From an uncultured Phycisphaerales bacterium (GTDB lineage Bacteria; Planctomycetota; Phycisphaerae; Tepidisphaerales; Tepidisphaeraceae): a stretch of DNA of 64,000 nucleotides. Positions within the stretch are counted from its first letter, which is position 1. Every line of letters begins with the position of its first letter. Under the pieces are notes generated by a model. The model worked only from the letters and a program-made list of their open reading frames with translations, searched no databases and was not told the origin of the DNA. The position numbers were made by a program, and so were the translations under genes. The DNA lies in contig CAVWVQ010000003.1 of the NCBI GenBank assembly GCA_963758525.1, forward strand, positions 2,848,001-2,912,000, in the 5' to 3' direction. Of the stretch, positions 28,052-41,662 are shown piece after piece.

Positions 28052-28744
28052 ATGGCCCGTAAACCCCGATTCTCCCCCGGCGGCTTGGCGTATCACGTGA
28101 TGAACCGCACTCCGGGGAAGGTCAAGCTGTTCGAGGATGATGGAGACTATCAGGCGTTTGAGAAGGTGCTGATCGAGGCGATCGATCTGCATCGGGGAAT
28201 ACGGCTCTGCGCCTATTGCCTGATGCCCAACCACTTTCATCTGGTGCTCTATCCCAAGACCGACGGCCAATTGTCCCGCTTCATGCAGTGGCTCACCATG
28301 ACCCACGCGGCCCGCTGGCATGCCCATCGCCACAGTGTCGGGCGCGGGCATCTGTATCAGGGCCGCTTCCGGAGCTTCCCGATTCAGCGGGACGGGCATT
28401 TCCTGAGTGTCTGCCGGTATGTGGAGCGGAATGCGCTGCGGGCCAGTCTCGTGGCCAAGGCGCAGGACTGGCGATGGGGTTCGCTCTGGGCGAGGGATGA
28501 CCGCAGCAGCGCGATCGCCCGGTTTCTGGCGCCCTGGCCGGTGGAGATGCCAGGGAGATGGGTGACTCTGGTCAATCGGGCGGAAAGCGAGGTAGAGCTG
28601 GCCGCGTTGCGCCGCGCGGTTGCTCGCGGCCGTCCCTACGGCGATGATCGCTGGTCGCAGCGGACGGCCAAGGCGCTGGGCAGTGACAGCTCGTTGCGCC
28701 CGATCGGCCGGCCGAAGAAATCGAAGCCGCCGAGGAAGGGCTGA
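28052..28744 (+). CDS. REP-associated tyrosine transposase (RAYT/Y1 HUH family)
   Basis: YHVMNR, AYCLMPNHFHL (HUH), GHLYQGRFRS, RYVERN, WRWGS. Confidence 0.88.
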   Translation: MARKPRFSPGGLAYHVMNRTPGKVKLFEDDGDYQAFEKVLIEAIDLHRGIRLCAYCLMPNHFHLVLYPKTDGQLSRFMQWLTMTHAARWHAHRHSVGRGHLYQGRFRSFPIQRDGHFLSVCRYVERNALRASLVAKAQDWRWGSLWARDDRSSAIARFLAPWPVEMPGRWVTLVNRAESEVELAALRRAVARGRPYGDDRWSQRTAKALGSDSSLRPIGRPKKSKPPRKG

Positions 28745-30402
28745 TGGCTGATGCGGAAAGATTGGCTTATGGCCCCCTTTTATCACCTGAATTGGAACAG
28801 CTGCTTCCTCCGCTAACCGTGTCCGACGCGAGCCACTCGTCGAATACCGTAACTGCCGTGAGCGGCACGCCGGTGGACCTCTACGTGCCTGAGGTGCTGA
28901 ACTCCGATGGCAGTTCAGCAGGCTATGCGACGATCAATCTGCACGAAGATGCCAGCGCTGCAAGCGGAGCGTCGTTGCCGTGGACGATCGGCGGGGCAAG
29001 CGCAAGTAAGAACGGCGGGACCGTTACGCAAGCCGCCGATGACTCGGTAACGCTGACGCCGACGGGCGGGAATTACGACTTCGATTTGCAGGTGGTGGCC
29101 GGAGAGTACTCAGAAAGCCAGGCGGTGTATGATGTCGTTGTGCATGTTTATACCGTGGCCGTCGAGTTCAACGACACGCCGGCAACGAATGACGATATTG
29201 TTATGCTCGGCACACCGGCGGAGGGTCCCGATATCCCGCCGAACCAGCCCGAGCTTGGCGCGGCGGTGCAGATGGTTGGCGACGGGCCATCGGGCCTTAC
29301 GGTGACGCTGGACAACCCAGACGGTCGTTTGGGTTTTGGCGAGGGAGCCCCTTCGTCGGAACCACTGTCACAGCCCTCATCGCCCGTCCCGACACAACCC
29401 AGTACCCCAAGCTTTACCCTCCCCACGGACGGCTCGTGGCAGTACGTTTCAGTTTTTGGCCTCGGCGTCAGCGCGGCTGTTGGCGACGCCTCGGTTCGGG
29501 TTTCGGGCAGCGTGCTCCGGCAAGTTGGCGGGTTCGTTCTCGGCAAAAAAGGGGCAACGGTATTTTGGTTCAGCGGGTCTAGCATTACCGTGCAGCCGGC
29601 TGGGAATTACGCGTCGGTTAATAACGGTCCAAAGGAGAGTTACACCGTAGACACCGCCGTGAATAACGCGGCGTCAGCGGTCACCATTCAAGGCAGCGCG
29701 ACACTCACCCCAGCCGGCATCGATCCTAATGCGCCCCAGCTCACTGCCTTACGAATCGGCTTTGTGCAAAACGCTGTCAACTCGATGAGCGTGGTGACAT
29801 ACGCAAACCCGGTTCAGGGCGCAGCCGTTAATGGGGGAGGAATTGCGAATGTCGCTCCCACGGAGGTCTACACGATTCAGGTCCCGACGCTTCTCAACGA
29901 CTCGGCTGTCGGCAGCACGCCGCTTTACGCTCAGCCCGGCAACGATTTCAACGACCCATTGACAAGCAATTCCGTGCAATACGCCAACGGGGTCGCACAA
30001 CCCAGCACAATTGACACGCCGTCACTAATTGGCTGGAAGCAATCGTTGACCCTCAATGCAGATGATGCAAATGGCAATGTCGTCGGCACGGTAACCTATT
30101 CCCTTGCAAGCTTAGCAATCGACGACGTTTTTCGAGATTTTCTGGTCGTGGGCGTGGCAGATTCCAATCAGCACGTTACCACGGTAATTGCCCCGTTGAA
30201 GGAGACGGGTTGGCATTTGAACGTGAATTCGGCGGCCGCCAATCCCAACACGCAAGTCGCAATAGTAAACGGCGATGCAAACGGCGGCTCGCCCCCTACG
30301 GATGCTCCGATATTGAGCGGCGCGCTGCTCAACGATGAAATTGCCAATCCGGCGAATTTGAACCTCGCGGGTGTCGGCAACCCCATACAGGACAATTTCT
30401 AG
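28744..30402 (+). CDS. Beta-rich extracellular-type protein, probably 5'-truncated
   Basis: 552-aa ORF rich in Ser/Thr/Asn/Val with lower GC; its first codons derive from a REP-like repeat; no signal peptide. Confidence 0.55.
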   Translation: MADAERLAYGPLLSPELEQLLPPLTVSDASHSSNTVTAVSGTPVDLYVPEVLNSDGSSAGYATINLHEDASAASGASLPWTIGGASASKNGGTVTQAADDSVTLTPTGGNYDFDLQVVAGEYSESQAVYDVVVHVYTVAVEFNDTPATNDDIVMLGTPAEGPDIPPNQPELGAAVQMVGDGPSGLTVTLDNPDGRLGFGEGAPSSEPLSQPSSPVPTQPSTPSFTLPTDGSWQYVSVFGLGVSAAVGDASVRVSGSVLRQVGGFVLGKKGATVFWFSGSSITVQPAGNYASVNNGPKESYTVDTAVNNAASAVTIQGSATLTPAGIDPNAPQLTALRIGFVQNAVNSMSVVTYANPVQGAAVNGGGIANVAPTEVYTIQVPTLLNDSAVGSTPLYAQPGNDFNDPLTSNSVQYANGVAQPSTIDTPSLIGWKQSLTLNADDANGNVVGTVTYSLASLAIDDVFRDFLVVGVADSNQHVTTVIAPLKETGWHLNVNSAAANPNTQVAIVNGDANGGSPPTDAPILSGALLNDEIANPANLNLAGVGNPIQDNF

Positions 30403-30410
30403 GAGAGAGT

Positions 30411-31471
30411 ATGTGCGGATTCTCTGTGCGTGCATTTCTCATCTTCACCACGCTTGTTTCGGGAGAGTCGCATTTAGCGGCGTCTGCTCAGTCTGAAACA
30501 GCGTCTTTAGGACAGGATTCACCTGGGTGCGCAGTGCGCATGGCGTGTGACATCGCACGTTTCAACCCTTTGGAAATCGACGGCCGCAATGGTGACGGAT
30601 GGGCGGTTTTACAGATCACGCCGGACCGTTGCGGGTACACAGAGCGCGTTGATCTCGCGATGTCCGAGGACGGGCAGGCATTTCCCGTTCCGCCGCCTGC
30701 CTCGCTCGAACGATCAATTGTCGGCGGAACGGTGCATCTGATCTCGGTTCTCTCGGGAAACCCAGGTTGCGTGGAGAGGTTCGAGGAGGTGACTATCGGC
30801 GGTGCTAACGCGCCCGACCCCGGCGTGTCCGAAAAATTTTACTCGCCATTCGAGCACGGAGGTACATTGGTTTGCCGTGTCAATAACGGCTTCCCGGGTC
30901 GATACCGGTTCTGTCCGGCTATTCTGATTCCATCGGAGTGGGCAAGCCAAGTTGAGCCCGCCATTCACTTTGTGCGGCAAAACTCGCAGTTATTCGACCC
31001 GGCCAACCTGCAGCGAGCGCGCCCTCGGCTCGAATCGCTTCTAAAAGATCCCAACCCTCTCCTCTCGGCTGCAGCAGCACGCCTGTTGGCGGCCGTGGGC
31101 GGATCGGACGACGCTATCGAGCGCCAATTGGCGATGACGAGAGACCCGGTGCTTCAAAGTGTCTTCGTCCGGGTTTTGGTTTTCGGCGGTCCAACTACCG
31201 CCTCTACCGATCGGGTAAGGGCGATCTGCAAGTTGGTCGGCTTGCGCACGAGCCAAAGGTCGTTCGGCCGCTTGCTGTCGGGACATTGGCGGCCGCAGCG
31301 CGACGTTTCCCTTGGGACGGACCATGGGATTCGGTAGATCCACTGATACATAGTCTGGCAGAGAAACTCTCTGACGCTTCGAACTCCTCAATCTACGACC
31401 GGCAGCTAATGAAGATGATCCAGGCGACGGCGCACTTTACCGATGCCCGGACCCCCACAACGCGCCAGTGA
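30411..31471 (+). CDS. Hypothetical exported protein with a HEAT-like C-terminal part, probably frameshifted near 31240
   Basis: AGGAG RBS; hydrophobic N-terminus; LESLLKDPNPLLSAAAARLL. Confidence 0.5.
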
Positions 31472-31545
31472 AAGTTGTCGCGACGCAGTGAAAATGGCAC
31501 CTGTTTTAAACGGAAAACGGGACGTCGCGACGTCACTGATTTCCG

Positions 31546-31920
31546 GTGATCGGGCTCACGCCCTTTGGCGTAACCCTTGGCGGCGGCACGTTCGACATGG
31601 CGGACAAAAGCGAAAGCTTCAACCTCCTAGCCGGCAGCGGAACGGTCACCGATTCATCGGCGACTGCTTCGTCCCTGACGATCGGAACCGCCAACGGCTC
31701 GGGCACGTTCTCCGGCGCGATCCGCAACGGCAACGCAACCGTCAGTCTGACGCAAATCGGAACCGGAACGCTCACATTGAGCGGCACATCCGACAACGCT
31801 TCGCTCGCGCTGGACGCCGAGGCGGGGACGACCATTCTGAACAAGACCAGTTCCGCCAGCGTCCACGCCGTCTCGGGGATCACCAACATCGCCACCGGAG
31901 CCCTCGTCCAGCTCTCCCGC
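31546..31920 (+). pseudogene. Internal fragment of an autotransporter-associated beta-strand-repeat protein
   Basis: GTFSGAIRNG..SLTQIGTGTLTLSGTSDN; lacks both termini; ends at a REP-like repeat. Confidence 0.7.
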
Positions 31921-31929
31921 CGCTTGTCG

Positions 31930-32030
31930 GGGAAATGCGAAGGGGGTCACCCGGTCATCAGGGCTCTGTAGAAAACCCCCAGTAACGCGAGAGCGGGGAA
32001 AGGAAAGGGGCCAGCCATCAGTCAGGCCAG
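31930..32030. repeat. REP-like repeats matching the 24394-24531 cluster in inverted orientation
   Basis: ggaaatgcgaagggggtcacccgg; ggaaaggaaaggggccagccatcagtcagg. Confidence 0.7.
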
Positions 32031-32575
32031 CTGCCAGCTTCTTCACCATCCAAGTTCTCTGGTTTACGCTGCGTTCCCATGGCTCGAAGGCTGCGATCCT
32101 CGGTCGACGGTCAGGTCTTTCATGTGCCGAAGCACGTGCCGAAATATTACATCTTCCGTTCCGCCCCCCACCTCGATCTTCCCCCTGAGTACGAGGGGAG
32201 GAGGTAGGAGGATGAATTCGAGCACCGAATAAGCGGCAATGCATATCTGTTGCTTGTCGTAAGGCAAGCGATTTTTTGTTATTTACGCATCGCTCGAATA
32301 CGTAAAATTCTGTAAAGTTGTGTAAAGCCAATCGCTGATTCCGAGCGGCAAACGAGGGTTGACCGCCCGGCGGTCACTCCCGTTGTCCCGGATTGTAAAG
32401 CGGCTGTTTGCCCCCTTGCAGCCCGTGGTAAAAGTTCCCGCGCGCGCGGGACTTGCTTGCGGCTTCGGGCCGGGCTCTTCGTTGTCGAGATTCGCCCGCA
32501 TCGTCGCCGGGTATCCGACGACTTCGGCAAATCTGTCCTTGCAAGTCTCAGTAACAGGTTGTGAAATCGGACGGA

Positions 32576-34124
32576 ATGTCGGCGGCTGTCGAATCCCCAC
32601 TGAGTGAGGCGCTGCGACGCAGGGTCATCGGCGCCGGCGGCTCAACGCGATTGGGAAAATCGCTCTTCCTTGTGGCGCTGCTCATTGGCGTGGTTTGCCG
32701 GGTGGCGCAATACGCATCGGATCAATCCTACTGGCATGACGAGTCCGCGATTGTTCTCAACATTCGCAGCCACACCGCCCGGCAACTCCTGGGTCCGCTC
32801 GATTTTGAGCAGGCGGCGCCGCCGATGTTTTTGCTTACCGAGCGAGCGGTTTTCAATCTGGCGGGCGGCTCGGAGTACGCCATGCGCCTGCTCCCATTCT
32901 TGGCTGGGATCGGAGGGCTTTGCGTGTTCGCTCTCCTCGCGCGGCGGCTGCTGACTGCGCCATGGGACGCGTTGGCCCTGGCATGCTTCGCGCTTGGAGA
33001 TCGGCTGATCTGGCACGCGTCGGAAGCCAAGCCATATGCGCTGGACCTTTTCGTCGCGCTCTTACTGACGCTGCTGGCGGCGGGACAGCGGCGCGGACTG
33101 CCAGCTTCGACCCGGCTGCTTCGGGTGGCGCTGGCCGCGACGCTGGCGATGTGGTTCTCTTATCCAACCGTCCTGATTTTCGCGGCGCTGAGCCTCGCGC
33201 TGCTTCCCGAGACTGTTTCGGCAACCGGCGACGGGTGGATCCGTTATGTCCTGCTGAATGTTCCGCCGGCGGCGTCGTTTCTCTGCGTTTTTGCTCTTTC
33301 GGTACGGGTGCAGCAAAGCCATGCGCTGGTCCATTATTGGGACAGCGAATTTCTTGATCTGCACCGACCCTGGGAGTGGCCGTGGTGGCTTGCGCCATGT
33401 GCATTCGCTTTGCAATTACGCGTTGCCCCTTGCGGGACCGGCGGTTCTCGTCGGCGCGGTCGCGGGCGGGGTGGCGCTCTACCGCACGCGCGGGAAGCAG
33501 TTGCTGGCGATCCTTGCCGGTCCGTTGGCGATTGCGATCGTCGCGGCGGCGGCACACCGCTACCCGTTTGACGGGGCCCGGCTCACCCTCTTTCTCAGCG
33601 GATCGATGCTGCTCCTGGCCGTCATCGGGTTTGAATGGATCTTCTCGCAGGCGCCGCTGCGGCTGCGAAAGGCGACGCTGGCGCTTCCTGCATACGTGCT
33701 GATCACTGCGCTGATAACGGCGGCCATTCACATCGTTCACCCGCGCAACCGCGGCCACATGCGGCCGCTCGCGGAGCACCTCGCACGGCAAGTGAGGAGC
33801 GACGACGCGCTGTTTGTTCTCGAGCAATGCGAATTTGAATGTTATTGGAATTCCGATGACCCGCGTCTCCATTGGTCGCTTCCCCGCGCGGATGCCATCA
33901 CCGCTCGTCGGTTCTGGATCGTGTGGTCGTTTTCCAACACGCGCGCCGCCTCGCGGCGCGAGGCGATTCTCCAATGGGCGCGGAAATTCGCGAGGCAACG
34001 CGAACTGTTTGATTTGCGCGACGCACAGGCGGTGCTCTTTGAATCGACGGGCGCACCGATCGCGCCTCGCGACAACCAACCCCCGGATGTTGCGGGCGTG
34101 CCACATGATGCTCATCGCGATTGA
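32576..34124 (+). CDS. GT-C (PMT/ArnT-like) polytopic membrane glycosyltransferase, one frameshift
   Basis: SYWHDE, QAAPPMF, SEYAMRL, EAKPYA, YPFDGARL. Confidence 0.7.
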
Positions 34125-34942: not shown

Positions 34943-36562
34943 TCAGTTGATCTTGTCGACGCGATGGAGAACCCACGGCTGGCCGTCCTGGGGCCCCTGG
35001 ACGGGCTCGCCAAGCGGCGCGCCGAGCTTCAGTTTCCGCTTGCTCAACTCAGCCTGCAGCGTGCTGGCGTGAACTGCTTCGCCAGACGCCGGGCGCGATT
35101 CGTCAAAGAACCCCTCCAGCGCGAATGCCGGTTGCCTGGGTCCCAGCAGGACGGTGTCCCCTTTTTCCAGCGCATACCGCCCGCTGATGTACGTCAGAAT
35201 GCGCGCGCACTTCGGCTCGACCAGCACCCAGTCGCGCGGTCCGACGTGCGTCTCCAGCAGCTTTCCGACGTTGCTCAACGACGCATAACATCCATCGCGG
35301 TAATGCTCGATGAACGGCACGCGCCGTTGCTCGAACGCCACCATCTGACCCAGCCGCAGCAGGTTGGTCGTCCCTCCCAGTATCAGCAGCCCCAGCAAGA
35401 CTTTGTCGGCCCACCGAGGCGGCAGCCGATGATTCAGCTTCGACAGCACGTCCCACCACGCGAAGACCAGAAGCGGAATCACGGGGAGAAAATAACGGTC
35501 CAGCGGCTTGAACAGGCAGAGCATCAGCACCGTGACAATCGCCCAGACGCCCCAGAGCTTGCGTTCGCGCAGGAGCCAGAACGACAGGCCGATCACCACC
35601 AGCGACAGCAGCGAATTCATTCCAAAAAACAGGGCGCTCCGAAGAGCGCTTTGACGCCCGACGATTCGAGCAGGCCGGGAATATTTTCCTTGAAAATCTG
35701 TCGCAGCAGCGTGGAAAGGCTGGCAAACTTCACGTTCAGCAGATAGTCCTCGTACCCGCCCACGCTGGGCGAGCCATGATGATGGCGAATGTTGAGTTTC
35801 CAGTAGAACAGCACGGCGGCGACGATAATTGTCGTAGCGATGAGAGCCGCCCAGAGGCGGGGAATTTCGCCCGCGAGCGCCGACCACATCACGCCGATCA
35901 CAATCGCCGCCAGGAGCAGAAGCATCACCGGGCGCATCGACATCGCCATCCCCAGGCCGCCGATGAGAAAAACCCAGTCAAACCATCGGGGCTGATGGGC
36001 TGGATCGCGCCGTGCGCGAAGACGATCGATTCGAGTCCGACGAGAACCGCCATGACCGCCACCAGAAACGGCATGTCCGACAGGAGTTCATACGAGTAGC
36101 GGTAGAAGAGCCGCGTCATGCCCAGCCCGAGCGTGACCATCGCGGCGGTCGGCCGGTCCGAGTGAAGCAGAAACAGCCGGTAGGTCAGCCCCAGCGCCGC
36201 CCATCCCATGAGGAGCATCACGATCAGCAGCGGCACGACGCTCTGCGTATGGAGGAGCCTGAAGATTCCCGCGAAAAGCAGAGGCAGCCCGGGATACGCC
36301 AGATGATGGGCAATTCCACGATAGGAATAGCCCAGCCCCATGCTGAGATTTGCGCCAGGCTGAGGTACAGCGCGCTGTCGCGCTCCACGCGCCACTGCCC
36401 GTTGAAACCGGCGAGATACATCGCGAACACCGCCAGAAAAAGCACGCGCCGATGGCGGTCGACGATGCCCAGGATCTTGTCAGAAAGACGCGACGGCTCT
36501 GCCTGCGGCCGCGCCATGACAGCGCTGCTCGTCGCGTGGTTCGCAACTTCGGTAACTTCCAT
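34943..36562 (-). CDS. Polytopic membrane protein, GT-C-like, about 3 frameshifts
   Basis: ERDSALYLSLA, YPGLPLL, LLSDMPF and RYFLPVIP across successive frames. Confidence 0.6.
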
Positions 36563-36767
36563 TGGTGCTCTGGCTGCCAATATAGTCCCCAACGCCCCGT
36601 GGGCAATCACGACGCAAATCGATCCGAAGCGCGGTCGCCGCTCGCGGCCTCCCAGCTTGCGCCTTCATCACCACTTGTCGGCGTCGCTCTCGTAGCTCGC
36701 TTTACGTTGTCGCTGGACCGGAAGGCGGCTATGCTTTCTTGAACAGTCCCAAGAGGAGCCGCTTTTC

Positions 36768-37473: not shown

Positions 37474-40472
37474 TCATTTCCCCTTTGCTTGGTGCAACGA
37501 ATTTCCGGCAGCGACGATGTCAGCCTTGAGCGTTGCATTGTTCAGGATGGCATCGTAGGTTCCCGACGCCGCTGACGTGTCCTGGGCGAACAAAGCCTGC
37601 GCTATCTGTTTTTGAGCCGAGGCGCTGATGCCCAATTGGTCCGATGTGCCCACGAACGCGGCAGGCAGCCCGTTGTTGTCTACCGTTTGCTCAAAGTTAT
37701 CCACGTCGTTCGAGGAAACCGTGGTCTGGCCAAGGCCGGCTTTGTCGAGTTGCGCCGTTTCACGCTCCGTCAGCTTCGGCTCGGCCAATAAGAAAGAGGC
37801 CTCGCGCAATTTGTAGGCCGTGAGCGCAGAGCGTTGTATCTTCTCCCACTTGGTGCTCTTCGCACTCGTCGCGCCGCTGAGACGGTTCTCAGTGGTATAT
37901 GCCGCACTGGCGTAGTCAATGATCTCTTCGAGGTTCAATTCGACAACATTGATTGCCGAAACAAGCGGCTTGGCATTCTTAACGCCAACAAAGCTCTTGG
38001 CGGTTGAGAATATTGCCCTGGTCGGTGCTGCGGGTTTGGCGATAGTCTCATAGGCCGGGCTTGCAGGGTCCACTGCAAGTTGATCGAGATCCAATGACGC
38101 GAGCGCCGAGAGAACCGCGTTCGTAGTCGCCGCTGAAGCGATGCCGGGGACGTTAGGGACGTCGCTTGCAAAATCATTGGCCGCAGCTGCAGCGCCAGCT
38201 GCGGAAGTATCGAAACCGGCTGAGGTCGTCGACACGGCGGCTTGCTGCGATGGGGTCAGGCCGCTATTCGTCGACTGTACGTAAGCAGTGACTACCGCTG
38301 ATTCGTCTCCGTCCCAGCCTTGGGATATTGCGGAGAGTGAATCGACCGAGCTCTGGTTGTTTGAAGTCACCGCTTGGGTGGTGTAACTGTATACCGAGGT
38401 CGCGTTATACGTCGCGTCGTTCGCTACGGTGCCACCGTTGGCGTTTGTGATCAGCAGCGACTCGCCTTCACCATTCTCATTTTCGTCGGTCGTTGAATAC
38501 TGAATTTCGACGGAGATTGCGGTACCCGGCGCAACGCCGTCAAGTGGCACTGGACCTCCATCAATGGGAATGTTGAATGTCCCAGGCATTCCGGTCACCG
38601 TTACCGAGCCCATGGCCGTAATGCTTGAATCCATATTTAACGTTTCGGTGACGGTTGCCGTCCCGCTTGCCACACCCGTCACCATACCATCACCGTCGAC
38701 GGTTGCAGTCTGGTCGTCGCTGGAGCTAAAGGTGACTGCGCCAGGGTCCAAGATGATTGGCTTGCCTTTTGCGCCGTTTGCGGTGACGTTCAACGCTTCA
38801 GTCCCACCAACATCGAGCGCAATGGGAGCGATGGTAAAAGTGGTTGCATAGTTCCCGTGCATGAGCAGCGTCATGTCGTCGGATTGCCGTCCCGAATCAC
38901 CCTGAAAACTGATGGAACTGAGGTCATTGGCCGCGGCAGTATAATTGGTGCCTGCGTTATCCGAGTTACTACCCTGAATCTCGGCCCGAAGCGCGGGCGT
39001 TGACAACACACCTTGATACTTCATATCGACTAGGGCGATTTGCGGATCGCGGTCGAGTTTATAAAACTCGGACTTGTAATTCCCCTGCGCAGCGTTGAAC
39101 TTCACATATATCGTATACAAAAGTACGGTCCAAGCCTGCGCTGGCGTGATGACCGGAGTCTTAGACTGCGGATTAGCGTTATAGGACTTCATCACGTCCG
39201 AGTATTTAAGCCCCGCCGCAGCCAAGGCCTTGGTAGCAAATGCCTTATTGTTGTGCGGCCCGCTCGCCGCTACATTCAAGCCGTACCCAACCGTCGGGAC
39301 CGGCGGCACGTCACTGTCTGAGTAGACATAATCCCGAAATTTTTCGTGGTAGGCAATTACCTCAGCCATTGCGGGATCCACTGGGCTAATTGGGCCAGCT
39401 AGGCTCTGTCTGACGGATCGAATGTTCGGCGCTCGTTAGGTATTGCGCGTTCTTCTATGATCGTCATGATGTTCTCCACATGGAGGACAGATGGCGCACT
39501 ACGAACTCACGGATGATCACTGGAACCTGATCAAGGCACTTTTCCCCGTACAAAAACGTGGCGGACGATGGAACGACCACCGCATCACGCTCAATGGGAT
39601 GCTCTGGATTCTTCGCTCCGGAGCTCCATGGCGAGACATGCCCGAACGCTACGGGAAATGGAAGAGCGTCTATGATCGCTTCAACCGCTGGCGGCGCGAA
39701 GGCTTCTTCGATCGCATCCTCAAAGCACTGCGGATTCGACTCAACAAGGAGGGCAAGATCGATTGGGATCTCTGGCTCGTCGACGGCTCCAATGTGCGTG
39801 CTTCTCGCGCTGCCGCCGGGCGCGCAAAAGGGGGCGCGGCCTCGACTTCGAACCGGCCGACCACGCGCTGGGCCGCTCGCGCGGCGGATGGGGATCAAAG
39901 TTCCACGTGGTTACTGACGGAAAGGGCCTTGTGCTCGCCGTCACCGTTACCGCGGGGCAAACGCACGAATCCACGCAGCTCCACAAGGTGATGCACGCGG
40001 TGCAGCCCCCCTGCACATCGGCTGGCCGGGGAAGATCGCGGGCGACAAAGGGTACAGCTACGAAACCGTTCGCCAGTTCCTGGCCGATTGCGGGATCGAA
40101 GCCGTCATCCCGCGCAAATCCAATCAGCCACGACCAAAGGGCGAGCGATTCGATAAAAGCAGCTACCGCAAACGAAGCCGCATCGAGTGTGCTATCGGAT
40201 GGCTCAAGGAATGTCGTCGGCTGGGAACACGCTATGAGAAGCTGGCTCTTAACTTCTTGAGCTTCGCCAAACTCGCTATCATGCTGAAATACCTGAGGGT
40301 TCTCGATCCGTCAGACAGAGCCTAACGGACCGCTAATGCCATCCCCGGCACCGGCAAGAACCTCACTTGCATTTGCGTGAATGACGTCATAACCCGCCTG
40401 TGTTACAGCATTTGGATCGTTTATGTCTATGGAATAGGAAAATAGAATTCTAGCTTCCAAGCTCTGAATCAT
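37474..40472 (-). pseudogene. Secreted LEPR-XLL-motif protein with a GH24 lysozyme-like domain and Big_2 Ig domain, interrupted by IS5
   Basis: Removing the IS and one TA joins MIQSLEARILFS (ATG at 40472) in frame to ORF 37474-39381; HEKFRDYVYSD...PTVGYG; VTFSSSDDQTATVDGDGMVTGV. Confidence 0.8.
39402..40322 (+). mobile_element. IS5-family insertion sequence (IS427-like), 921 bp
   Basis: 20-bp perfect TIRs GGCTCTGTCTGACGGATCGA; TA duplication; transposase 39491-40325 (YELTDDHW, WRDMPERYG, DKGY, RYEK) with an AAAAGGGGG slip site near 39826. Confidence 0.93.
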
Positions 40473-40655
40473 TTGATGCCCCTTCTGGAGGATTGGACAA
40501 TATTGGCATTCCAGCGAGAGTCAGTCAAGATAATCCCCGAGCCACGACAGAAATGCAGCGTGGCTTCGAGGCTGACTACGTATTGGCAGTCCGCGGGTCG
40601 ATTTGGAGCCGGAAATCGCTGGTTGTAATCGCCGATAAGCCGATAAGCCGGCTAT

Positions 40656-40760
40656 ATGCAAACGTCGATCCGCCAGCCGTACGCTGAATTGAGTCTGCCC
40701 GGGATCAAGCCGATCGATTTCCGCTCGCGGCCCACACGGATCATCGGCGAGCGCTTTTTG
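40656..40760 (+). pseudogene. Truncated ASCH-domain 5' fragment, copy 1
   Basis: SIRQPYAEL..GIKPIDFRSRPTRIIGERF. Confidence 0.7.
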
Positions 40761-40762
40761 AG

Positions 40763-41014
40763 TCAATCTTCCAGCGTTGGGATGAGCAGCACGCGTTTGT
40801 CGCCTTCGGCGCGGAGTTGCCGCTCGATCTGTGACATTAGCCTGGCGTGATCGGAGGCGCGAACGCCGGGTTGGCTGGGAACAACAACAACATAAAGCCA
40901 GTCGTCATCCAGTTTGGAGTCTGACACCTTGAGGTGGATGCCTTGCGTCTCCGCCTGTTTGAGAAGGTGCTCGACCTTTTTCACGATGGGATCAATTTGC
41001 TGCAGGGTGGGCAT
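40763..41014 (-). CDS. 83-aa hypothetical protein, candidate partner/antitoxin of the HEPN gene
   Basis: Co-oriented directly downstream of the HEPN gene; GAAAGG RBS. Confidence 0.65.
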   Translation of the reverse strand: MPTLQQIDPIVKKVEHLLKQAETQGIHLKVSDSKLDDDWLYVVVVPSQPGVRASDHARLMSQIERQLRAEGDKRVLLIPTLED

Positions 41015-41090
41015 GCCGGGCCTTTCAAACCTAAATGAACGTGCGCGATTACGCGCACGTGCGAGCAGTATGCTGCCCTCAGGGCAGCCG

Positions 41091-41490
41091 CTAAACGGTT
41101 TTTGGAAGCGCGTAATCGCGCAAGGTCATATAGAACGAATCAAAGATCGTCTTCATGATGGTGATCGCTTCTCGTGCGTCCCGGCTCTCGACGGCAACCG
41201 AGGGCTTGTAGTCGGCGTCGATCCGAAGCGTATACAATCGCCCGACCAATTCGGACAACTTTTCGCGTTTCTCCTGCCGCATGTTGGGCATGCTGGTCTC
41301 GATGAGCCTTCGAATGCCTGCACGACCGGTTTTGCCCGGATGACTCGGCCCCTCGCGATCGGGTGGCATGGTCAAACCCGCCGTTACAACCAACTCATGG
41401 GTGACCTTCGAATAAGCGGCATAGTAAGCTCGTGACATGCACGAGCGAAATCTTTCCAGCTCCATCAGCTCGTTCTAATTCAACCCACAT
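41091..41490 (-). CDS. HEPN-domain protein, N-terminus apparently damaged
   Basis: SRAYYAAY, SH, LRIDADY; upstream MWVEL (ATG 41490) is out of frame with NELMELERF. Confidence 0.72.
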
Positions 41491-41539
41491 ATTTCACACC
41501 CGAAGCATCATCGCAGCATTTTAGCCGATACCGCATACT

Positions 41540-41662
41540 ATGCGAGCGCTAAGCATCCGTCATGCTAAGCATCCGTCAGCCGTACGCTGAATTGATTCCG
41601 CGGGGAGTCAAGCCGATCGGGTCCCGCTCGCGACCGGCGCGGTCATCGGCGAGCGGTTTTTT
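41540..41662 (+). pseudogene. Truncated ASCH-domain 5' fragment, copy 2, with an internal tandem duplication
   Basis: MRALSIRQPYAELIPRGVKPI..RSRP...IGERF; gctaagcatccgtca is duplicated. Confidence 0.7.

Follow-up and report, generated by a model that had tools for sequence, protein, structure and literature searches.

An IS5-interrupted gene for a leader-tagged, T4-lysozyme-like protein in a Tepidisphaeraceae genome

PMC8567305 describes an N-terminal motif with the consensus RRLxxExLExRxLLA as the presumed signal by which planctomycete cell-surface proteins are exported, and the ExLExRxLL leader has been regarded as a probable export signal since 2004, as cited in the same source. The cargo listed in PMC8567305 for such proteins (RRLxxExLExRxLLA or LEPR-XLL; PF07595, NF012209) consists of protease, Ig-like and integrin-beta domains. 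Here we describe a gene in which a leader with the same ExLExRxL(L/F)S core at the N-terminus precedes a predicted cell-wall hydrolase fold. The gene lies in a 64,000-nucleotide stretch of DNA (the window; G000:C3:2848001-2912000) from an uncultured Phycisphaerales bacterium of the family Tepidisphaeraceae, whose own genome (G000) measures 6.47 Mb at 61% GC, and it is split by an insertion sequence (IS) of the IS5 family.

In T4-type lysozymes (T4 lysozyme and gp5; CAZy GH24, viral type), the roles of Glu, Asp and Thr are given in PMC2976769 (Table 2), with distances among the three of about 8.6, 8.8 and 4.8 angstrom in GH24v, and a hydrophobic-Asn/Gln pair is described as a peptidoglycan/substrate-binding motif in PMC8334348. 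Two kinds of non-phage protein share this fold or its catalytic residues. Pesticin (PF16754) is a lysozyme-like bacteriocin aimed at other bacteria. The SagA and TtsA muramidases have a chromosomally encoded T4-like catalytic triad and a non-phage role (PMC8334348), acting on their own wall beside a secretion system.

We suggest that the intact product of the window gene was an exported T4-type muramidase directed against foreign peptidoglycan, which is now disabled; judging from sequence, the chances for and against this reading are about equal. Judged by its parts, the protein would act as a GH24 muramidase that carries a planctomycete export tag, but it fails the formal hidden Markov model (HMM) tests for both families. 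Pesticin is its nearest Atlas cluster (0.94), a non-phage lysozyme-fold protein for which the aim would be the same; unlike pesticin, the window protein has no PF16754 match, no visible uptake domain and no adjoining immunity gene, and its lysozyme domain is N-terminal. In polymorphic toxins, by contrast, the toxin domain sits at a variable C-terminus. The window gene also differs from those of SagA and TtsA in being unlinked, anchorless and patchily distributed, and from prophage endolysins in having neither a phage context nor close phage relatives. Of greater interest than the broken copy is that the fusion of leader and predicted GH24 domain recurs in Tepidisphaeraceae.

Reconstruction of the interrupted gene

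Excision of the IS together with 2 nt restored a single open frame of 691 codons, running from 40472 to 37474 on the minus strand. Five joins were tried: removal of 0, 1, 3 or 4 extra nt led to a stop near codon 50, and only removal of 2 nt left the frame open. The insertion site lies after codon 50, so that the leader is parted from the rest of the gene. The features of the locus are as follows (window positions).

40479..40484, minus strand: Shine-Dalgarno-like AAGGGG, 6 nt ahead of the ATG (from the sequence)
40323..40472, minus strand: 5' gene piece, codons 1-50, now entering the IS end with a stop 3 codons later (frame and P0005 alignment)
40437..40472, minus strand: short ExLExRxLFS-type leader, LEPR-XLL/Planc_extracel-like (15.5-bit matrix score)
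39402..40322, plus strand: IS5-family element, 921 bp (inverted repeats, TA duplication, transposase match)
39491..40322, plus strand: IS5 transposase in three frame segments, a DUF4096 orfA and then a DDE orfB with an extra frame change
37474..39399, minus strand: 3' gene piece, 641 open codons plus stop, protein P0001 (open reading frame)
38848..39369, minus strand: T4/GH24-like lysozyme domain, uninterrupted (profile match, Atlas, fold search, residue table)
39343-39345, 39316-39318, 39292-39294 and 39013-39018, minus strand: key residues Glu, Asp, Thr and Tyr-Gln, respectively (residue table)
38635..38820, minus strand: Big_2 Ig-like domain, Pfam-matched core (PF02368, E 1.1e-7)
38275..38592, minus strand: C-terminal module part 1, modelled as a beta jelly-roll and bearing a conserved acidic motif (AlphaFold2, alignment)
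37477..38274, minus strand: C-terminal module part 2, four long and further short predicted helices, the first pair a small-residue hairpin (AlphaFold2)

A 49-codon open frame is by itself weak evidence, 42% of random frames being equally open. The join is real because the 5' piece aligns to the N-terminus of the intact homolog P0005, ungapped over residues 1-47 (34% identity, E 2e-6); the same test against homolog P0004 gave no match. The 641 codons of the 3' piece are free of stops and frameshifts, and the near-identical protein P0002, from a 3.3-kb contig, begins at the same internal Met. A promoter scan gave 1 candidate against 2.2 expected, no more than chance.

The IS has perfect 20-bp terminal inverted repeats (39402-39421 and 40303-40322) and a TA target duplication (39400-39401 and 40323-40324). 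G000 carries nine copies at 99.2-100% identity, differing at just 10 columns, and TA flanks the element on both sides in 9/9. Its orfA matches the NF033580 IS5 transposase at 119 bits (cut-off 110). With a length of ~0.9 kb, short inverted repeats, a TA duplication and a frameshifted orfA/orfB, it resembles other IS5-family elements, and the insertion itself is ordinary. It differs from them in a second frame change within orfB, near a C-run (~40005-40010), that is common to all nine copies; either two frameshifts are part of its design or it is non-autonomous. The intact 3' codons and the near-identity of the genomic copies point to a recent insertion.

That the split gene is an assembly artefact or a chance join is highly improbable. 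Indel-type frameshifts do occur elsewhere in the assembly, as in the split murQ, but the inverted repeats are exact, the target duplication is that of all nine copies, a single join of the five is open and the 5' piece is homologous to an intact relative. The preliminary description of this DNA had proposed a gene split by a recent IS5 insertion, restored by excising the IS and one TA, and preceded by an AAGGGG ribosome-binding site; each of these points was borne out.

The lysozyme-like domain and its relatives

A seven-sequence profile of the domain (A2) matched T4 lysozyme (174l, E 8.9e-7) and the T4 gp5 lysozyme (7cn7, E 2.4e-6) in two collinear segments. The nearest Atlas clusters were Pesticin/Phage_lysozyme (0.93-0.94). 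In the VIA fold search, the top 16 rows were lysozyme-superfamily chains or T4-lysozyme fusions; the best of them, the phage endolysin 4evx (Z 7.2, root-mean-square deviation 2.3, 78 aligned), is weak on its own, and the pesticin structure 4epf reached Z 5.3. Counterparts of T4 Glu11 (where the first helix ends), of Asp20 and Thr26 (in the beta-hairpin) and of the hydrophobic-Gln substrate motif are all present in the window copy, with Asp at +9 from Glu and Thr at +17 owing to a 2-residue insertion (+15 in homologs). The hairpin glycines and the long interdomain helix align with those of T4 lysozyme and gp5 as well. Apart from its hairpin, the window protein differs from these enzymes in a new D-x-D-P-Q-I-A motif, in the loss of the C-lobe Ser-x-Trp-x-x-Gln motif, in falling below PF00959 detection, and in being a non-phage, multidomain, leader-tagged protein. 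Three homologs scored 13.6-16.6 bits in the PF00959/PF16754 test, below the cut-off of 22.3. By these comparisons, the domain is a divergent T4-lysozyme-like subfamily and not a PF00959 member.

A search of 1.84 billion representatives with the domain gave 10 hits, namely P0002, P0003-P0010 at 38-46% identity, and P0011 (3036 residues, repetitive), which was dismissed as a chance match. Five of the eight homologs open with the same short leader and the other three are without their N-terminus; all full homologs combine the leader, the lysozyme-like domain and an Ig-like stretch. The C-terminal module is shared by P0004 and P0006, and P0003, P0005 and P0007 have different tails. Within the 141 genomes of the family, which also make up the order-level set, the subfamily was found only in G000 and G327; a search of the two congeners turned up no member. 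Of the stretches picked out by pattern scans with profile A2, 0/81 from metagenomes, 1/183 from genomes and 0/118 from viruses were confirmed, and word-indexed protein searches added only relatives of the C-terminal module and generic Big_2 proteins. No match was obtained by tblastn against 50,697 phages, no member was confirmed in viral contigs, and the scanned neighbours are cellular genes. The non-phage setting, the E-x8-D, T-V-G-Y-G and Q-I-A-L-V-D-M motifs and the GH24/T4-type homology that had been claimed at the outset thus agree with what was found.

A tree of 24 rows placed the subfamily in a single group (100/99), sister to the leader-tagged canonical GH24 domain of G406 (87/88 support, not starred). 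The tree was built without P0002 (the same protein), P0009/P0021 and P0010 (partial), L053 (contig end) and L055 (below cut-off). Alignment of the subfamily with the G406 domain by hhalign gave 98% and E 2e-13.

The window gene is the sole GH24-like domain found in G000. Across the family, the profile search (4/141 genomes) and PF00959 (6/141) yielded 10 GH24-type loci in eight genomes, and six of the 10 are leader-tagged. On the leader matrix described below, these six score 15.5 bits (window gene), 6.9 (G327 C14, degenerate), 21.6 (G327 C31), 19.2 (G406, frameshifted, ~200 residues), 25.1 (G436) and 22.4 (G387). Each of the remaining four scores below -7. One is flanked by hcp and a vgrG-like gene, one stands alone, and two resemble prophage loci on inspection by eye. 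In the subfamily, the lysozyme domain is N-terminal; it is C-terminal in G327 C31 and G436. Among 400 genomes of other Planctomycetota, 0/10 PF00959 matches carry the leader, a count in which two matches are poorly assessable (one cut by a contig end, one below cut-off) and for which the matrix, built from G000, may be less sensitive in other planctomycete classes. The approximately unbiased (AU) test is compatible with monophyly of the leader-tagged GH24 domains as a whole (p-AU 0.33) but does not demonstrate it. No published account of a leader-GH24 fusion was found in the literature on planctomycete leader proteins and lysozymes, a survey with few subscription journals and no supplements. 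In other Phycisphaerae, a GH24 domain forms the tip of an RHS protein (L003, in G145) or lies between hcp and a vgrG-like gene (L040, in G437).

The leader and the possible role of the intact protein

G000 contains ~64 long open reading frames (ORFs) with the ExLExRxL(L/F)S motif near their start. On a matrix built from these 64 paralogs (minimum 1.9 bits, median 30.6), the leader of the window gene scores 15.5 bits, a value reached by 97 of 8.6 million 14-mers; leaders of intact homologs score 20.1-30.8 bits, with one at 6.9. The leader core begins at residue 3 in the window gene and at residues 3-8 in homologs. NF012209 and PF07595 pass just 8 and 0 sites in G000, respectively, so the library leader models are insensitive in this lineage. 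One further leader-tagged protein of G000 (3684 residues; G000:C3:4593262-4601067) has an RHS core and so places the leader on a polymorphic-toxin-type scaffold.

The secretion-related SecA_DEAD module, related to type I secretion systems (Kamneva, Poudel, Ward 2015, PMC4452313), is represented in G000 by a full secondary cassette (L035; G000:C3:3092704-3100586) of HlyD, GAF-HlyD, PqqD-like-M50, HlyD-segment and short SecA_DEAD genes. The full cassette was checked in G000 alone; a short second SecA_DEAD is present in 5/5 relatives tested, and G000 also has TolC-type genes. We infer that the leader directs export via this cassette.

Based on these data, we propose the following course. The leader would route the protein, composed of leader, lysozyme-like domain, Big_2 and C-terminal module, out of the cell, probably via the SecA_DEAD/M50-HlyD/HlyD cassette and a channel of the TolC type, so that it crosses both membranes at once. 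Such one-step export would spare the producer's own periplasmic peptidoglycan, and would explain the missing immunity gene. Only 61 bp separate the stop codon of the window gene from the end of a convergent gene for a dual-specificity phosphatase, which leaves no room for an immunity gene downstream; at the other leader-GH24 loci, frames of at least 130 residues were listed, a threshold that small immunity genes could escape. Once outside, Glu, Asp and Thr in the T4 register would hydrolyse the bonds between N-acetylmuramic acid (MurNAc) and N-acetylglucosamine (GlcNAc) in exposed walls, such as those of Gram-positive neighbours and of damaged or dead cells. Big_2 may serve as a spacer, and the C-terminal module may anchor the enzyme to a surface. 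The benefit would be feeding and local competition; MurNAc use would be possible given the MurQ homologs found in 5/5 genomes tested (three above cut-off, the G000 and G406 copies in pieces). The recent insertion after codon 50 would have disabled the gene because a downstream restart would yield a leaderless cytoplasmic protein. Activity of the enzyme would mean that planctomycetes of a family common in soil attack the cell walls of bacteria or recycle them.

Several points weigh against this reading. In intact Gram-negative cells, the wall is out of reach for a lysozyme that acts unaided. MurQ has a part in ordinary recycling as well, and the G000 copy is split over two frames. As a single sequence, the domain had no match in Pfam, NCBIfam, PHROGs, PDB sequences or PADLOC; a direct test against PF00959 and PF16754 returned 0 families at E<=1, and no match was found in G000. 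The AlphaFold2 model of the domain has a mean predicted local distance difference test (pLDDT) score of 62, with 76-92 in the N-lobe and below 50 in the C-lobe. Foldseek returned nothing for it at E<=0.001 (best E 0.057, the top rows being T4 lysozyme chains), and the VIA Z of 7.2 falls within the range of unrelated matches. Compared with T4 lysozyme, the catalytic hairpin carries the 2-residue insertion and lacks the turn Gly. Among the seven subfamily rows, Glu is kept in 5/7, Asp in 6/7, Thr in 7/7 and Asn/Gln in 2/7. Unlike the published LEPR-XLL proteins, the window protein is small, has no Arg-rich RRL stretch ahead of the leader core, and is not among the 17 and 43 genome matches listed for NF012209 and PF07595, respectively. 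The SecA_DEAD cassette sits 200 kb from the gene, unlinked; PMC4452313 describes the module as secretion-related with an unknown role, and its abstract and section 17 name no substrate, so that the link to the window protein is a putative one.

The preliminary description had proposed HMM searches of the reconstructed protein, which recovered its Big_2 domain (PF02368, 32.2 bits, cut-off 22.8) and neither the leader (NF012209, PF07595) nor the lysozyme domain (PF00959, nor PHROGs). The planctomycete leader it described does belong to the ExLExRxLL class, in a truncated form without the Arg-rich stretch. This truncation, the residue changes in 5/7 members and the recurrence of leader-GH24 fusions in Tepidisphaeraceae are points that it missed.

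The altered catalytic and substrate-binding residues in 5/7 members make a non-catalytic role a live rival. The lysozyme fold may bind peptidoglycan or an amino-sugar polymer and tether the cell to bacterial debris or neighbours, with catalysis lost or being lost, an account that we regard as possible but rather unlikely. All four key residues occur together in just 2/7 members, the window copy and P0007. Glu is replaced by Asp (P0004) or Ser (P0006) in 2/7 and Asp by Asn in 1/7, and the substrate motif has His in two more rows. P0006 matches the window protein in its entire architecture (42% identity) but has Ala-Ala in place of the substrate motif; 14 further columns are nonetheless invariant. 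A long branch (0.84) leads to the subfamily, and the C-lobe Ser-x-Trp-x-x-Gln-type motif of its sister GH24 domain is gone in 7/7 members. In contrast, the comparison rows (n=17) keep Glu in 16, Asp in 15, Thr in 17 and Asn/Gln in 17; Fisher p values for subfamily versus other rows are 0.0005 for Asn/Gln and 0.19, not significant, for Glu, and both are overstated because the comparison rows came from an HMM search, in which conserved sequences are favoured, and because related sequences do not count as independent. The full residue set of the window copy and P0007 and the Thr kept in 7/7 argue for catalysis, and the C-lobe motif is missing from 8/17 other rows too, including ordinary P22-like endolysins. 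Some subfamily members may be inactive binders, and the drift of catalytic residues would then offer a natural enzyme-to-binder series.

An exported muramidase might also open the host's own wall for secretion or a surface structure, as SagA or TtsA do. Non-phage T4-like muramidases in such a role exist (PMC8334348), genes for a full peptidoglycan pathway are known from a Tepidisphaeraceae member (PMC13514998), and an autolysin would need no immunity gene. However, the subfamily occurs in just 2/141 family genomes and neither congener, the gene has no link to a secretion operon and no Sec signal or membrane anchor by eye, and its loss is tolerated. Its GC content at third codon positions (GC3) is 0.63, compared with 0.74-0.76 in four neighbouring genes and a median of 0.75 in the 64 leader paralogs, which fits lateral gain. 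We therefore consider an autolysin decidedly improbable, and foreign peptidoglycan the better candidate for the target of a muramidase.

The C-terminal module and the genomic surroundings

The AlphaFold2 model of the C-terminal module (mean pLDDT 82) consists of a jelly-roll followed by four long helices. The helical C-terminal domain noted earlier is therefore present as a helical bundle, preceded by a beta jelly-roll, and is not helical only. No Pfam family was found in 16/16 members, and there was no match among PDB sequences, in the Atlas or with Foldseek. The VIA rows for the module are tied and non-specific (jelly-roll Z 6.5-7.8), so that no fold family is claimed or excluded. The module represents a new unannotated domain family.

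A metagenome scan for the module confirmed 14/518 stretches. Two of these are P0022; at the other 12 loci, the module lies near the N-terminus behind ordinary-looking signal peptides (by eye), and one of the 12 proteins has a tail that we take to resemble PEP-CTERM. In P0014/P0022 (L020:4945-7065), the leader and the same module flank a different middle domain of ~290 residues, for which searches gave just E 0.07 to an 821-residue hypothetical protein of a Pantoea plasmid; an Ntox44-like RNase, suggested by inspection by eye, found no support in these searches. G421 has the leader and module only, followed by a DUF6438 gene. Because it is found with another middle domain, alone and behind signal peptides, the module is, on sequence grounds, a general extracellular module and not lysozyme-specific. 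It occurs in many soil metagenome proteins (L021-L032, L011, L012, L013), and its relatives often show conserved acidic motifs along with a pair of Cys residues at the tip of the hairpin.

These architectures bear on a contact-delivered toxin, in which the leader would export the protein, the jelly-roll bind a target cell and the hairpin insert into or cross the outer membrane, bringing the lysozyme or another domain into the periplasm, pesticin-like in effect. The leader and module around a different middle domain in P0014/P0022 look as if cargo had been swapped, although that domain matched nothing informative. The leader protein of G000 with an RHS core and the related GH24 domains that form the tip of an RHS protein (L003) or belong to an Hcp/VgrG-type locus (L040) point the same way, as do two giant LEPRxLL proteins reported inside a partner bacterium, the export of which the bioRxiv preprint 10.64898/2026.03.19.712371 ascribes to other routes. 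One of the tied helical matches is the pore-former AhlB, but its Z of 7.5 is unremarkable for helical bundles. The best 19-residue mean hydrophobicity of the first hairpin is only mild (1.26, versus 1.2-2.1 in stand-alone relatives, and lower than in most of them), no immunity gene adjoins, the module mostly stands behind signal peptides (12/14 loci), and P0003, P0005 and P0007 carry other C-termini. We regard contact delivery as quite unlikely, and a muramidase released against exposed foreign walls as the preferred reading.

On a broader view, which we think unlikely, the LEPR-XLL-type route would be an immunity-free antibacterial channel of Tepidisphaeraceae, with phage-type lysozymes on leader proteins in at least five architectures and the widespread, unannotated jelly-roll and helical-hairpin module delivering swappable cargo to target cells. 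If this were true, such degraders of polysaccharides in soil and peat would be bacteriolytic, and the G406 fusion, the smallest at ~200 residues, would be a ready reporter for the putative secretion system. The usual leader cargoes are huge and hard to assay; a cargo of 200-700 residues whose predicted lytic activity is easily measured makes it possible to ask directly if the leader brings about export and if export runs through the SecA_DEAD/M50/HlyD cassette.

The upstream neighbours of the window gene are mbfA and a HEPN gene with an 83-residue partner; in G327, the gene next to the subfamily member encodes an aldose epimerase. The HEPN gene (41091-41465) matches PF05168 at 22.2 bits and PADLOC HEPN_IX at E 2e-4, and its partner is an unannotated ORF (40763-41014). 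Both are bracketed by 92-bp direct repeats (40668-41661; 83% identity, genome-unique) and are possibly an inserted toxin-antitoxin-like pair. A 103-bp palindromic element at 41031-41133, with 26-nt arms, ~60 related genomic copies and relatives in both congeners, resembles repetitive extragenic palindromes (REP) or miniature inverted-repeat transposable elements (MITE).

Genes split over two frames are found at 32561-34124 and 35925-36606 of the window (glycosyltransferase-like membrane proteins by eye) and in murQ (G000:C3:1663943-1664645), which suggests indel errors in the assembly. The stretch 28744-31985 of the window contains a 552-residue low-complexity, extracellular-looking ORF without a Pfam match, together with a HEAT-like ORF and a short fragment of PATR repeats; these are possibly the remnants of another large exported-protein locus.

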